IMG/VR virus record: IMGVR_UViG_3300031576_000012
Coordinates: 30,997-94,996 of that record
Source: a virus
Reading direction: 5' to 3' (one strand)
Length of the DNA: 64,000 nucleotides
Part shown: positions 18,130 to 31,050 of the stretch, piece by piece
How positions within the stretch are numbered: position 1 is the stretch's first letter
Layout of the letters: every line of letters begins with the position of its first letter
Position numbers and translations under genes: made by a program
The notes under the pieces: generated by a model
Told to the model about the DNA's origin: nothing
The model's database searches: none
What the model saw: only the letters and a program-made list of their open reading frames with translations

Positions 18130-18158
18130 TTGACATATAATCCTATTCCTGGTATAAT
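18130..18158 (+). promoter_or_regulatory. rightward consensus sigma70-type promoter
   Basis: TTGACA-N17-TATAAT with TGn extended -10. Confidence 0.85.
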
Positions 18159-18667: not shown

Positions 18668-18821
18668 TATAAAGGTAGTACTTAATAAAAAGATTGACAA
18701 AGCTATTACCGATATGTTACAATACGTTATAGATAGGGTAGACTTAGAGAAGGCAGAACTAGCTGAAGAAGAACAGGATAGACTTGAGAGAGAATATGGA
18801 AGAACCAAGAATAAAGACTGA
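18618..18821 (+). CDS. hypothetical protein
   Basis: GGGGAG RBS. Confidence 0.65.
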   Translation: MRNKSKSGMLKSMTKSSIKVVLNKKIDKAITDMLQYVIDRVDLEKAELAEEEQDRLEREYGRTKNKD

Positions 18822-20974: not shown

Positions 20975-21181
20975 TTGAGTTATATCATGAATGAAAGATT
21001 AAACCGCCCAGATTTAATTAAGCTTACTTTATTGTTAGAATATTACGATGAAATCCTTATTAATCACGCCCAGGCCAAAATAGTGATTCTTTCGGAACAT
21101 CGGAACATTCTACAGGAACGAAGCCGTATTTTGTCTCTCTTGCGGGATAAAAGAAAAAAGGCATTATTGTTGAGTAGATAA
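20975..21181 (+). CDS. hypothetical protein
   Basis: Leu-rich ORF; start uncertain. Confidence 0.5.
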   Translation: MSYIMNERLNRPDLIKLTLLLEYYDEILINHAQAKIVILSEHRNILQERSRILSLLRDKRKKALLLSR

Positions 21182-21206: not shown

Positions 21207-21713
21207 GTGATGAGCGAAAAGCCATTCAAACAGAAGTTTAAAGAACTAATGGATGACGCTTCTAAACTCGTTAAGGAAGCTACCCCAAAAGAAATAGAAG
21301 AGATTAAGGTTAATCTATTTAATACAACTATTCTCCCTTCCTCAGACCTGGTTTGCAAAACCGACGAGGAATTTGATTTACGAGTACTTTATCGTATTAC
21401 AGGAGTCATTGGTGAATTGCCTTACATTCTTATACATCATGATGAACTTACAGACGCGCAAATCGAAAAGCATCGACAAAAAGCTCTCTCTGAGCACAAA
21501 AAGTTCATCTTACCCTCTATTGTCGAACCAATCTCAAATCACCCTGATCGCCAATTTACCCCTTATCTCGTATTTCCAACACACGACAAATTACTTTTTC
21601 TATTGCCTCTCGAAGGCTCGGCTTTTTCTGATATCGAATTTGAAGATCCACAATCTGAATCTGATGAGGATTTAGAAGACGATTTCGACTTTCCATCTGA
21701 GGATGAAGAATAG
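21207..21713 (+). CDS. hypothetical protein with acidic tail
   Basis: GAGGT RBS; C-terminal D/E/F-rich tail. Confidence 0.75.
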   Translation: MMSEKPFKQKFKELMDDASKLVKEATPKEIEEIKVNLFNTTILPSSDLVCKTDEEFDLRVLYRITGVIGELPYILIHHDELTDAQIEKHRQKALSEHKKFILPSIVEPISNHPDRQFTPYLVFPTHDKLLFLLPLEGSAFSDIEFEDPQSESDEDLEDDFDFPSEDEE

Positions 21714-22010
21714 CTGGTGAAGGAAACGAGTATGGTGAAAACTATACTCATGCAATTCCTCCCAACTATCCCTTTAAAAAAGGATAGTACTTCCTCCTCA
21801 TCTGTTGGGCTAGGTGGCTTCGGCTGCCTAGTCCTTCAGAATTTATGTTCTTAAAGGCATAAACACAGTTTATGTTTTAAAAGACATAGATGCTTATACT
21901 GATGTGGCCATAAGCTTTAAACGGCCCGTGAAAGTGACCGCAAGGTCTGTGCAGCTATGCCCTATCCTACGTAGTAGGAATATAAGACTTAAATATGTTA
22001 TAGGGAAGTA
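21696..22010 (+). ncRNA. candidate structured non-coding RNA
   Basis: GAAA-, UUCG- and GCAA-capped helices, G-U pairs and an H-type pseudoknot within a 300-nt intergenic gap (see findings). Confidence 0.5.
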
Positions 22011-22014
22011 TTCT

Positions 22015-22212
22015 ATGGATATTAAAAATACATTAAAAATAGTCGGTATCTATGCAGGGGTCGCTATAGCGTACATTCTTGCTGTAGATTTTTTTGCTGG
22101 TTACTTCCTTGGCAAATTCGATTATTGTATGGTAAAAATGTTTTTTAGTATGATCTTAGGTTGTTTTGCTCTTCATCCTCTTTCCAGATGGATTATTGGA
22201 AAAATTCTATAA
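22015..22212 (+). CDS. small two-TM membrane protein
   Basis: ATG 22015 after AGGGA; two hydrophobic segments. Confidence 0.6.
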   Translation: MDIKNTLKIVGIYAGVAIAYILAVDFFAGYFLGKFDYCMVKMFFSMILGCFALHPLSRWIIGKIL

Positions 22213-22613
22213 TGGCTAAACCAAAAGATAACATAACCAAAAACAGTTCAGTTGCTACAAAGAAACCTGAAATGATTAATGGTGCCCCAGTTCGTAAGAG
22301 TGGGTCTGCTATTGCATCTATGCCAAAAAAGGAATATGTCAATACTATGAAATTTGACTATTCTAGTTTAGAATATAAGCAATATCCTAATAGGGTCAAA
22401 GTAAATATAGAATTGAATGAAGAGAGATTCCCAGCGGAATCTAAAGTTCCTCCTTATGATAAATATGATGAAAAGGGGAACTACATTAAAAATAAGTTTA
22501 TTGCTACTGAAAAGAAAGTGAAGAAGGTAGAAGGAGTAAAATACTCAATAGGTCAACTAGTGAGAGAACATGCCCTTTCTAACCCTCATAAAAACAATGG
22601 AAGAAAAAGATAA
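22212..22613 (+). CDS. basic hypothetical protein
   Basis: TAATG-coupled start MAKPK. Confidence 0.7.
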   Translation: MAKPKDNITKNSSVATKKPEMINGAPVRKSGSAIASMPKKEYVNTMKFDYSSLEYKQYPNRVKVNIELNEERFPAESKVPPYDKYDEKGNYIKNKFIATEKKVKKVEGVKYSIGQLVREHALSNPHKNNGRKR

Positions 22614-23148: not shown

Positions 23149-24624
23149 ATGTCACAATACGGCGAACCGCTTAAAATCCATGAATTGCATGTTGAAGAAC
23201 TAGTAGAGGAATTCTCGAAACGAGGCATTACTACCACTTCTTCAAAGATTGGTAAGCTACATCCAGCACAAATTCAAATCGTTCATGACGTAGGAAGATT
23301 CAAAGTATTAGCCTGTGGAAGACGTTTTGGTAAATCTTTGTTCTGTACGGCTGTAGCAGCTGCAGTTGCTATGCAGCCAGGAAGAAAGATCTGGATTGTT
23401 TCTGATAACTATGGTCTAACAGATAGAGTATTTGCAGAACTTTATCATCTTTTTGTTAATGAATTGAAATTAGCTGACTCTTCTAAAGGTGGAGCATCTT
23501 CTAAATTAAACAGATACATCAGATTACCTAATGGCAGTGTCATTGAAGGTAAATCTTGTGAAAACCGCAAATCTCTCGTAGGTGAATCTATTGATTTACT
23601 TATTTGGGATGAGTGCGCTTTAACTGTTGGAGGGGAAGATATCTGGAATCAGGAGCTTCGTCCTACTTTAATTGATAGAGAAGGTTCAGCTATCTTCATT
23701 TCTACTCCCCGTGGGAGAAACCATTTGTATAAGTTTTATATGAATGGGTTAGAAGGTATAGCTGCCAGAGAGAAACAGGCTCAAGGCTTACCTCTTACTG
23801 AAGATGAAACTATAAAATCAGAATGGTCAGGATTTAAATTTAGTTCTTATTGCAATACCACCAATCAAGGTGGCTATTTGAAGAAATCAGAAATTGATTC
23901 AATGAGACTATCAATGCCTGATGTTAAGTTTAGGCAAGAAGTTATGGCTGATTTTACAGCTGTAGCTGATTCTGTGTTCCCTGAATTTGCACAAGAGACT
24001 CAAGTTGTTGATTGGGACTTCAATCCAGCATGGCCAGTTTATGTGGCAATGGATTTTAACTACCAAACACCTTGTACTTCTTTGTATCTTCAAATTGATC
24101 CTAACAATAATATCTTAGTAATTGATGAATATCATCCTAAAGACGCACATAAAACCGTGCATCAACAGGCTAAACAGCTTTTAGAGATGGATCAAAGGTA
24201 TAATAAGAGAATTGAACTTATTGTAGCAGATATAGCTGGAAAACAGAAAGATCTAAATGGAAGAAGTGCATGGGATGATCTAGCTGATTGGAATATATAC
24301 CCAGTTGGCAGAAAGCAAAAAATAGAAACAGGTTGTGATTTAATTCGTTTATGGTGTTCATACCCTAAAGTAGACCAAAATAATCAACCTGTGTTTGATA
24401 AAGAAGAAAAACATATCGTATATCCTAAACTCTTTGTAAATAATAGATGTAAAAATTTAATATTTGCCTTAGAAGCTGCTCGTGCTCCAGAGGGGCAAGG
24501 TGGGGTTTCTAAAGAAGGATATAGAAAAGATGGTATAACAGACGGTCCATTAGATGCACTTCGGTATATTCTAGTGTACCTCTTACATGATTCCAATTTA
24601 GTTGGAACATTACCAGTAGTTTAA
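23149..24624 (+). CDS. terL: terminase large subunit
   Basis: CGRRFGKS Walker A, LLIWDECA Walker B, ISTPRG coupling motif, nuclease AMDFNY and DGPLDALRY. Confidence 0.95.
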   Translation: MSQYGEPLKIHELHVEELVEEFSKRGITTTSSKIGKLHPAQIQIVHDVGRFKVLACGRRFGKSLFCTAVAAAVAMQPGRKIWIVSDNYGLTDRVFAELYHLFVNELKLADSSKGGASSKLNRYIRLPNGSVIEGKSCENRKSLVGESIDLLIWDECALTVGGEDIWNQELRPTLIDREGSAIFISTPRGRNHLYKFYMNGLEGIAAREKQAQGLPLTEDETIKSEWSGFKFSSYCNTTNQGGYLKKSEIDSMRLSMPDVKFRQEVMADFTAVADSVFPEFAQETQVVDWDFNPAWPVYVAMDFNYQTPCTSLYLQIDPNNNILVIDEYHPKDAHKTVHQQAKQLLEMDQRYNKRIELIVADIAGKQKDLNGRSAWDDLADWNIYPVGRKQKIETGCDLIRLWCSYPKVDQNNQPVFDKEEKHIVYPKLFVNNRCKNLIFALEAARAPEGQGGVSKEGYRKDGITDGPLDALRYILVYLLHDSNLVGTLPVV

Positions 24625-29630: not shown

Positions 29631-30998
29631 ATGGCACAAGTCATTTCATTAGCTGATGCAGCTAAATTATCTAATAATCTCTTGGTTGAAGGTGTAATTG
29701 AAGATATTATCACTATTAATGAGTGGTACCGTTTTCTACCTTTCGTTGTATTTGAAGGACTTTCCTATACATTTACACGAGAGGCTCAAATCGCTAAGTC
29801 TGCTTTCGCAGCTCCTGGTGCTAACCTCAACCAATTGAAATATCAGAAGGGTGCAACCGTTTCAAACGTAAACGTTCACCTAGCTGCTATCATTGGCGAC
29901 ATTATCATGGACGGACAGATCGAAGACCAACTATCTGATCACAACGATCAGCTACAGGTCCAGATCAGTTCAAAGTCTAAGGATATTGCTCGTACTTACA
30001 TGAACTCAATCATCAATGGCCGTAGAATCCCTGGTGGTCCACTTGTTCAATCGAACAACGGTCCTATCGGAATCGAAGCCAAATTCGACGGTATGAAAGC
30101 TATTCTAGATGCAGAATCTGGAAACAGCGATGACGTTAACCATCCTTTCTATAATGCTGGTGCTTCAACACAAACACTAGACCTTACAGAGGATGACAGC
30201 GCATCACCCCGTTTGAATCGTCCAGGCCGCGTATTTACACTAGAAGATCTAGACAACTTGATCGACCGTGTAACTACAGGTAAACCTGACTTCTTGATGA
30301 TGCACTCAAGAGACATCCGTACACTAAGAGTATTACTACGTAATACTGGTGGTGGAACAGATGCATATCAAATTCAGCAAGTTGGTCTCGGAAATATGAA
30401 GCCTATGCTTATGTATCAAGAGATCCCTGTATTCCGAAACGATTTTATTTCTCGTTTCGAACCAGTTAACTTGGTGGATTCAGGCGCAGTTGCCGCAGTA
30501 GGCGCTGCCTCAATCACAACCGCTGAAGACTATTCTCTAGGCGTACCCGCAGCTCTTGCTGATGGTATTGCTGCAGGAACAGCAGCCGCAGTTGTACGTG
30601 GTGATGATGGAATTCTTCGGAAATACAAAATCACTGTCGCAACAGCAGCTAACCCTTCAGTACTCACAGTAGTCGCAACTGGAACATTCCTTGATGTTGA
30701 AAACAACAACAATGAACTCCAACTTGCACCAAACGATGTATCCCTCGGACTCGTAGGCAAAACCTATGAACTCTATGAGAGAGCAGACGGTTCGGAAGTC
30801 TATTGTGGACGTTGGGGTGAGATGGAAGGCGTTTGCGGATTTACTTCTGCTAATGACGCCGGTGTTGTATTCGAATTCGTTGGTCCTCGTGAGAACGAGA
30901 ACGCCAATCAGTACCGCCTCAAGTGGTATTGTGGGTTCGATCTCTACAACCGCCTCTCGCTTGCTAGAATGCGTAGAGTTCTACCTCTCGGAGCATAA
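29631..30998 (+). CDS. major capsid protein (HK97 fold) with an inserted domain
   Basis: SLADAAKL..N.L..GVIE N-terminus, LPF, FDG, IPVFRNDFI, RLKWYCG; codon usage typical of high expression; downstream terminator. Confidence 0.92.
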   Translation: MAQVISLADAAKLSNNLLVEGVIEDIITINEWYRFLPFVVFEGLSYTFTREAQIAKSAFAAPGANLNQLKYQKGATVSNVNVHLAAIIGDIIMDGQIEDQLSDHNDQLQVQISSKSKDIARTYMNSIINGRRIPGGPLVQSNNGPIGIEAKFDGMKAILDAESGNSDDVNHPFYNAGASTQTLDLTEDDSASPRLNRPGRVFTLEDLDNLIDRVTTGKPDFLMMHSRDIRTLRVLLRNTGGGTDAYQIQQVGLGNMKPMLMYQEIPVFRNDFISRFEPVNLVDSGAVAAVGAASITTAEDYSLGVPAALADGIAAGTAAAVVRGDDGILRKYKITVATAANPSVLTVVATGTFLDVENNNNELQLAPNDVSLGLVGKTYELYERADGSEVYCGRWGEMEGVCGFTSANDAGVVFEFVGPRENENANQYRLKWYCGFDLYNRLSLARMRRVLPLGA

Positions 30999-31022: not shown

Positions 31023-31050
31023 GGGGGAGATTAACGTCTCCCCCTTTCTT
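31023..31050 (+). terminator. intrinsic terminator after the MCP
   Basis: GGGGGAGAT-TAAC-GTCTCCCCC followed by TTTCTT. Confidence 0.85.

Follow-up and report, generated by a model that had tools for sequence, protein, structure and literature searches.

A conserved structured RNA element predicted at the entrance to the packaging genes of uncultured phages

Most models of gene timing in phages rest on proteins and, to our knowledge, RNA elements at the switch to late or packaging genes have been described for a handful of model phages only (nut and qut of lambda, put of HK022 and c4 of P1). This study deals with an element of about 130 nt located upstream of the packaging genes in a window of 64,000 nt (positions 30,997 to 94,996 of IMG/VR virus record IMGVR_UViG_3300031576_000012, which comprises 94,996 bp and is an estimated 83% complete; coordinates refer to this window unless a relative is named). 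It is composed of three hairpins (hp1 to hp3) and two CU-rich linkers, and is flanked at its 5' edge by two purine tracts, A and B (Table 1).

In the precursor of the c4 RNA of phages P1 and P7, complementary tracts (a1/b1) are also found upstream; purine tracts A and B are reminiscent of these. The c4 RNA is co-transcribed with its target and blocks the ribosome-binding site via short complementary tracts (PMC12197685). The element resembles it in being phage-encoded, in lying within the operon that would be controlled and in carrying two short tracts that might pair with purine-rich ribosome-binding sites. Yet, it has no Rfam C4 match, differs in size and fold, and is situated at the entrance of the packaging operon instead of the immunity operon. 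Moreover, its tracts are generic anti-Shine-Dalgarno (anti-SD) sequences, for which no specific target was found in four phage genomes.

Small RNAs of the RsaE/RoxS and RNAIII types are built of covarying hairpins presenting invariant unpaired C/U-rich tracts that mask Shine-Dalgarno (SD) sequences, and end in a stable hairpin. The element as modelled would share these three features, but these RNAs are host-encoded, possess their own promoters and canonical terminators and are included in Rfam, whereas the element has no Rfam match, no promoter predicted in front of it and no U tract. Like lambda nut (boxA/boxB) and HK022 put, it would be a cis RNA at a phage operon entry that combines hairpins with conserved linear sequence and is transcribed before the genes under its control; unlike them, it has variable loops, no visible boxA and no N-like partner among the proteins considered. 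With the T7 RNase III hairpins and with intrinsic terminators, hp3 shares a long and stable intercistronic stem followed by a U/A-rich tail, yet it was not flagged as a terminator and comes with two more hairpins and with near-invariant linkers totalling 36 nt, which these systems do not explain. Finally, 8,495 candidate structured RNAs were extracted from IMG/VR by Fremin et al. in 2023, some of them consistently upstream of packaging genes (PMC10690425). These candidates come from the same data source and are objects of the same kind; the element, which appears to be new (no Rfam family and no match in deposited phages), may be present among them without a name.

Extent, fold and covariation of the element

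The element is located in a non-coding gap of 301 nt (21714-22014) between the stop codon (TAG, 21711-21713) of an upstream gene, called FSD here, and an ATG at 22015. This ATG, the next credible start, opens a 65-aa membrane open reading frame (ORF) that matches the 63-aa ORF of relative L102 from the first residue. A preliminary description of the window had proposed a structured RNA of about 300 nt in this place. The gap is real and folded RNA is predicted from it, but the selected structure is restricted to about 130 nt (21713-21842, + strand). Judged by comparison between relatives, this part is a real, uncatalogued and conserved structured RNA, and the remainder of the gap (about 170 nt) is lineage-specific filler.

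Relative to shuffled sequences, the fold of the whole region (21696-22015) scored z = -5.6 on the + strand and -5.05 on the - strand, while 21696-21842 alone scored -7.83 (-63.9 kcal/mol) and -5.12 (-52.8 kcal/mol), respectively. Removal of hp3 and its UUCG loop (21696-21803), to which the preliminary description had drawn attention, still left a z of -5.16, that is, better than shuffles. For 21843-22014 the scores were -1.97 (+) and -2.31 (-), and for 21891-22014 the value was +0.18, no better than shuffles.

The same order was observed in every copy: a GGGAGG-like purine tract, a spacer of about 5 nt, hp1, AUGCAAUUCCUCCCA, hp2, ACUUCCUCCUCRUCUGUUGGG and hp3. Both hp1 and the 12-bp stem closed by a cUUCGg loop (21807-21834) had been noticed at first sight and proved to be conserved, the latter being lengthened in hp3 by UCUG (21801-21804) and CAGA (21837-21840), a lower stem that borrows the end of the second CU tract. 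Hairpin hp2 is likewise conserved and was absent from that initial list. In linker 1, the AUG and UUCCUCCCA were invariant in all eight sequences, the three nucleotides past the AUG alone varying (CAA, CAG or UGA). The hp1 loop was GAAA, GUAA, UUCG, UUUG, UUCC or UUUCA, and that of hp2 was A-rich in the window and GCAA or UUCG in relatives. Since the loops are stable tetraloops that can replace one another (GNRA, UNCG and others), the hairpins look like scaffolds.

Table 1. Positions of the features discussed, in the window or, where a locus is named, in its relatives
Feature	Position	Strand	Basis
FSD protein gene, 168 aa, acidic tail	21207-21713	+	homologues aligned in A5, A8
Structured RNA element, whole (model R1, 126 positions)	21713-21842	+	cmsearch 100.7 bits, fold z = -7.83
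Purine tract A (UGAGGAUGAAG), putative 5' side of outer helix P1 (partner 21790-21800)	21698-21708	+	inverted repeat I5, minimum free energy fold
Purine tract B (GGUGAAGGAA here, GGGAGG in relatives), putative 5' side of helix P2 (partner 21756-21763)	21716-21725	+	minimum free energy folds
hp1: 9-bp hairpin GAGUAUGGU-GAAA-ACUAUACUC	21728-21749	+	covariation
Linker 1, AUGCAAUUCCUCCCA, anti-SD-like CCUCC	21750-21764	+	invariant in 8/8 apart from 3 nt
hp2: 7-bp hairpin ACUAUCC...GGAUAGU	21765-21788	+	inverted repeat I6, covariation
Linker 2, ACUUCCUCCUCAUCUGUUGGG	21789-21809	+	19/21 bases identical in 8/8 sequences
hp3: lower stem UCUG/CAGA and 12-bp G-U-rich stem, UUCG loop	21801-21840	+	covariation
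Two tandem AU-rich hairpins (UUUAUGU...CAUAAA)	21842-21890	+	direct repeat D1, inverted repeat I1
Lineage-specific non-coding spacer	21891-22014		z = +0.18, no homologue
Small membrane protein ORF (65 aa), first gene past the gap	22015-22212	+	homologues L102 (63 aa), L091 (84 aa)
FSD family members	window 21207-21713; L003 2616-2963; L008 5846-6298 (-); L091 6109-6537 (-)		
Variable slot	window 21843-22212; L091 5532-5937 (-); L034 255-667; L008 5491-5757 (-); L104 145-519		
Basic K/R-rich protein	window 22212-22613; L003 3098-3469; L091 5140-5532 (-); L102 708-1163		

Homologues were sought in IMG/VR and JGI metagenomes by searches based on the large terminase (TerL) and on DNA patterns. Exact-pattern matches in IMG/VR were mostly chance occurrences or low-complexity TCC repeats and were filtered by eye and with a covariance model. 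Seven other distinct copies were retained, in L003, L008, L034, L042, L091 (same phage as L002), L101 (continued by L104) and L102. The covariance model (R1, cmsearch) found one copy in each of the eight distinct sequences covering the site, at 96-125 bits for the seven others, and exactly one over the full 95-kb record. The TerL proteins of element-bearing relatives were 61-73% identical to that of the window; two of these relatives are complete genomes (112 and 117 kb) with terminal repeats. With R1, no element was detected in phages at 24-31% TerL identity, and blastn of 21600-22100 gave no match among INPHARED phage genomes. Contigs of GTDB genomes yielded neither a match to the DNA pattern nor a TerL relative, hence no prophage copy. 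Within the window, linker 2 retrieved only the element itself, even with up to 3 mismatches allowed.

Covariation was evident among the homologues, as would be expected of the RNA suspected from the single sequence. The alignment fitted to the model (A6, eight sequences) displayed changes on both sides in 20 of its 33 pairs, and the same count was obtained with an unfitted MAFFT/RNAalifold alignment. Standard pairs were formed in 92.6% of the A6 cells, against 46-53% when partners were slid, and none of 500 column shuffles reached any of the observed covariation measures. All cells of hp1 were paired, with double changes in eight of nine pairs; double changes also affected seven of the nine model pairs of hp2 and five of the 11 pairs of hp3 (90.7% of cells paired). 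The stems had no common sequence between lineages, the linkers (15 and 21 nt) being near-invariant in phages whose TerL proteins are only 61-73% identical. On these comparative grounds, the three hairpins are kept by compensatory changes.

Model pairs included 25 G-U cells versus seven A-C cells and the fold was 11 kcal/mol more stable on the + strand. Because of this bias, the data point to the + strand as the functional one, as initially proposed, and to an RNA read in the same direction as the flanking genes rather than a duplex-DNA site. A site of the latter kind, whose TTCCTCC boxes would bind the small terminase (pac/cos-like) or a late-transcription factor, or would form part of a promoter, might be suspected from the position upstream of packaging genes, from the two similar boxes about 35-40 bp apart and from the fact that both strands fold better than shuffles. 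We consider it very unlikely: the hairpins are held by compensatory double changes, the G-U over A-C bias is strand-specific and not required of duplex DNA, the element is single copy, so not a repeated promoter, and no sigma-70-like promoter was predicted at it. A repeated promoter of a single-subunit RNA polymerase (motif ending in GGG) was likewise dropped, the motif occurring only once in the window.

Known RNA classes, terminators and small reading frames

No Rfam 15 covariance model matched the 64-kb window at gathering thresholds, and permissive filters applied to 21500-22250 merely yielded eight chance-level matches of unrelated types at E <= 10 (12-24 bits against thresholds of 40-93). 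Families without a match include C4, pRNA, riboswitches, RsaE and int-alpA. ARAGORN found no tRNA or tmRNA gene in the window, so that the initial impression of an RNA matching no tRNA, tmRNA, riboswitch or known ribozyme was upheld by both searches. A phi29-type pRNA was rejected, given the lack of an Rfam pRNA match and the T4-type TerL (PF03237) of this phage; genomes of about 95-117 kb with a T4-type terminase are not known to be of the type that uses pRNA. Nothing in the evidence points to a packaging-motor RNA or an anti-defence decoy, two roles evoked at the outset.

The overall layout could also recall a riboswitch-like sensor, i.e. a three-way-junction aptamer with conserved junction strands and hp3 as expression platform. 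Indeed, an aptamer followed by a terminator might show this combination of closing helix, two covarying arms and invariant junction strands, with a strong adjacent hairpin overlapping the 3' junction strand. However, the eight Rfam matches are noise and no riboswitch reached its threshold; the junction strands consist of plain CU repeats able to pair with purine runs, not of the scattered conserved bases of a pocket; hp3 has no U tract; and no conserved alternative pairing was found. Such a sensor is therefore highly improbable.

Hairpin hp3 has the GC-rich stem-loop of an intrinsic terminator (12-bp stem plus 4-bp lower stem), but was not flagged in the window, L105 or L102 by a scan for such stems followed by a U run (at least 5 U of 8, starting 0-2 nt past the stem). 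The same scan flagged true terminators, with long U runs, at 31023-31044 in the window (with UUUCUUAUCU) and at 2210-2224 in L105 (GGAGGCUAAAUCUCC-UGCGUUUUUA). That of the window is strong and bidirectional-looking (GGGGGAGA-UUAACG-UCUCCCCC plus U tract) and adjoins the 3' end of a 455-aa ORF (29631-30998). Hairpin hp3 itself may terminate weakly, be processed or protect the 3' end.

These observations bear on a passive interpretation in which hp3, together with hp1 and hp2, would terminate leakily, be processed as an RNase III-type site or stabilise the 3' end at the junction between the FSD and late messages, the CU tracts having no pairing role. Its GC-rich stem of 16-17 bp with a U/A-rich tail (AUUUAU, UUUUAU) is what such a junction would call for, and the element does lie between blocks resembling transcription units, canonical terminators being present 5' of FSD in L008 and L101. 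Apart from the fact that hp3 was not flagged as a terminator, this interpretation leaves unexplained the near-invariant linkers of 15 and 21 nt and the two extra covarying hairpins. We regard it as possible but rather doubtful.

A small protein or regulatory mini-ORF could start at the invariant AUG of linker 1 (21750), the purine tract serving as an SD brought near by hp1. The succession of GGGAGG, 5 nt, hp1 and AUG has the geometry of a split SD, the AUG is invariant and MQFLP is common to six of the eight sequences. Yet UGA directly follows the AUG in L034 and L042, the lengths in codons were 34, 43, 10, 1, 1, at least 100 (still open on reaching the next gene), 10 and 38, and homologues read the second invariant tract in three different frames. 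Both a small ORF and an MQFLP leader peptide were accordingly dropped, the frame shifting elsewhere as well, and we find this alternative hardly tenable.

Genomic setting and the remainder of the gap

The first 49 nt past the element are occupied by two tandem AU hairpins (21842-21863 and 21869-21890) that had been recognised in the preliminary description. They exist and recur in part, since the stem UUAUGU/ACAUAA was also found 3' of hp3, twice in L101/L104 and once in L102, where the SD and AUG of the gene for the membrane protein lie within it, but they displayed no covariation. The last 172 nt of the gap (21843-22014) had no blastn or tblastx homologue among 131 loci, and a decayed gene was rejected on this basis. 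The H-type pseudoknot and the GACC-GCAA-GGUC hairpin claimed earlier in this part, as well as the CACAG/CUGUG and CCCUAU/AUAGGG pairs, did not exceed chance at the z-scores given above for 21843-22014 and 21891-22014.

Genes of the window are oriented leftward up to about 18 kb and rightward from 18.4 kb, and the gap belongs to the rightward arm, which begins at near-consensus sigma-70 promoters (about 18.1-18.2 kb). Near-perfect promoters flank the strand switch at 18130-18158 (+), 18237-18209 (-) and 18694-18723 (+), with 12/12 and 11/12 matches and an extended -10 TG. This suggests a host with a canonical sigma-70 and GGAGG-type ribosome sites. By a word index, the window is linked to a cave metagenome as its probable source sample, for which two DNA runs and no RNA run were listed. 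Downstream of the gap are found, in this order, the 65-aa membrane ORF (matching neither Pfam nor PHROG), a basic 133-aa ORF, a 191-aa ORF, TerL (23149-24624, T4-type, PF03237; phrog_2), and the portal and structural genes.

The element begins within a few bases of the FSD stop codon in seven of the eight lineages, and overlaps it in L034 and L042. FSD proteins comprise 100-168 aa with an invariant C...G...F..P...P...F.D signature, and commonly an acidic tail (DFDFPSEDEE or EFEPDF). A protein search retrieved 12 homologues, eight of which were on contigs outside the compared loci, and an IMG/VR scan with the short FSD type only found the contig of L003. No Pfam or PHROG family and no usable ESM Atlas match were obtained; an AlphaFold2 model (pLDDT 72) had no Foldseek match at E <= 0.001, VIA-align Z remaining at or below 4.

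A canonical terminator with a U tract lies in front of the FSD gene in L008 and L101; FSD is therefore probably the first gene of a transcription unit continuing into the packaging genes. A conserved non-coding stretch (CATCCGTATCT...TGTGTTACG) was observed 5' of FSD in L008 (as L105 2078-2300) and L101 (about 2540-2790); it ends in this terminator, whose stem differs between the phages, and is followed by a shared TATAGC box that could be a non-sigma-70 promoter. L102 displays a weaker look-alike, CCATCCGTAC, upstream of its element. Also 5' of FSD, the window contains a 68-aa ORF with a TTG start (20975-21181) and the motif H[AT]QAKI[IV]xLxEHR. It is probably a real small gene, because ORFs of L107 and L109 at the same position carry this motif.

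Between the element and the gene of the basic protein lies a slot of variable content. It is empty in L003, where the SD and AUG of the next gene occur within 20 nt past hp3; expression of the packaging genes in this phage thus requires transcription through the element. In other lineages the slot encodes a membrane protein (window and L102; 63-84 aa when the L091 homologue is included), an MDPAS...WYEFLG protein of about 64-75 aa (L091) or a CxxCxGxG zinc-finger protein (L008 and L104). Another small ORF comes first in L034 and L042, followed in L034 by an MDPAS homologue. The slot behaves as a hot spot for small accessory genes, and the extra 172 nt of the window belong to this variable zone. 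The basic protein is K/R-rich and 108-151 aa long (RFPxE...KKYDEKGxYIK...SLSNP), has no family match and always precedes a 183-192-aa ORF beside TerL; it may bind nucleic acids in packaging or in regulation.

This conserved neighbourhood suggests candidates for a protein-recognised site, either an antitermination site of the nut/put type or a translational operator, with FSD, the basic protein of about 130 aa or a host factor binding the linkers. Invariant single-stranded tracts between covarying stems are typical of RNA bound by proteins or RNA polymerase, and synteny was maintained with FSD in seven of eight lineages and with the K/R-rich protein in all those reaching that far. Still, loops vary (GNRA, UNCG and others), unlike boxB; no lambda nut-type boxA, GCUCUU(U)A, was visible by eye in the eight element sequences, no pattern search having been run; no RNA-binding fold or family could be recognised for the FSD protein; and L102 has no FSD beside its element. 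We judge this explanation unlikely.

Candidate role at the packaging-operon entrance

Both CU-rich tracts resemble anti-SD sequences and can pair with the purine tracts at the 5' edge of the element. Tract A is 91% complementary to CUUCCUCCUCA (inverted repeat I5) and this pairing was used in the minimum free energy (MFE) fold, which agrees with the partner near 21795, one of two alternatives put forward in the preliminary description. When 35 nt of 5' flank were included, a similar nested junction appeared in the MFE folds of six of the eight homologues. From these models we infer two helices, P1, in which purines at the 3' end of the upstream ORF pair with the second CU tract, and P2, in which the GGGAGG-like run pairs with the first. 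Duplex energies of P2 ranged from -6 to -12.8 kcal/mol; in three lineages no background window of the locus did as well, and the other five ranked at 4-24%. The tracts are not merely codons of the acidic tail, since L102 displays perfect GGAGGA and GGGAGG tracts with no FSD gene within 378 nt upstream.

The element is most likely transcribed within a rightward message that covers FSD and continues into the packaging and late genes. Its position (start of the packaging module, co-oriented and single copy) and its anti-SD-like tracts fit a role in gene expression best. The reading that we put forward, tentatively, is that of a regulatory RNA acting by SD/anti-SD pairing at the entrance to the packaging/late operon. 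A base-pairing RNA fits because covarying scaffolds, two CCUCC tracts with an identical core and matching purine tracts just upstream are found together. The hairpins would be scaffolds presenting the two CCUCC tracts. In an unprocessed and untranslated message, these would be masked by the two GGAGG-like purine tracts, as helices P1 and P2 of a three-way junction formed partly within the last codons of the upstream gene. Once released by ribosomes completing that gene, or by cleavage 5' of hp1, the CU tracts would be able to pair with purine-rich ribosome-binding sites, downstream in cis or in trans. The outcome would be a c4-like gate on expression, with hp3 as a stable 3' boundary, be it a processing or protection hairpin or a weak terminator.

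Several observations weigh against this SD/anti-SD reading. P1 and P2 displayed no covariation, no pair having changed on both sides, although they cannot do so since their CU (3') strands are invariant. Either CU tract is an equally good partner for the GAGG core, and downstream SDs, inspected by eye, match these tracts by only 4-7 nt, as any SD would. An extended antisense target common to four phage genomes was not found, the only matches being the complement of the tracts themselves and chance-level sequences with one mismatch. The gene directly downstream of the element also differs between lineages. Finally, with only eight sequences from about six independent lineages, the covariation of the hairpins is strong, not exhaustive.

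A bolder variant would make the tracts tandem mimics of the anti-SD tail of 16S rRNA, the first of their class. Unmasked by upstream translation or excised, they would bind GGAGG sites in trans and shut off or re-time host or early phage translation as packaging begins; we see this as improbable.

The element is situated at the late/packaging switch of uncultured phages of about 100 kb from cave, sediment and other environmental metagenomes. If the proposed SD/anti-SD gate holds true, it would constitute a compact, portable and translation-coupled control module, and the masking of ribosome sites by RNA would serve the timing of phage late genes.

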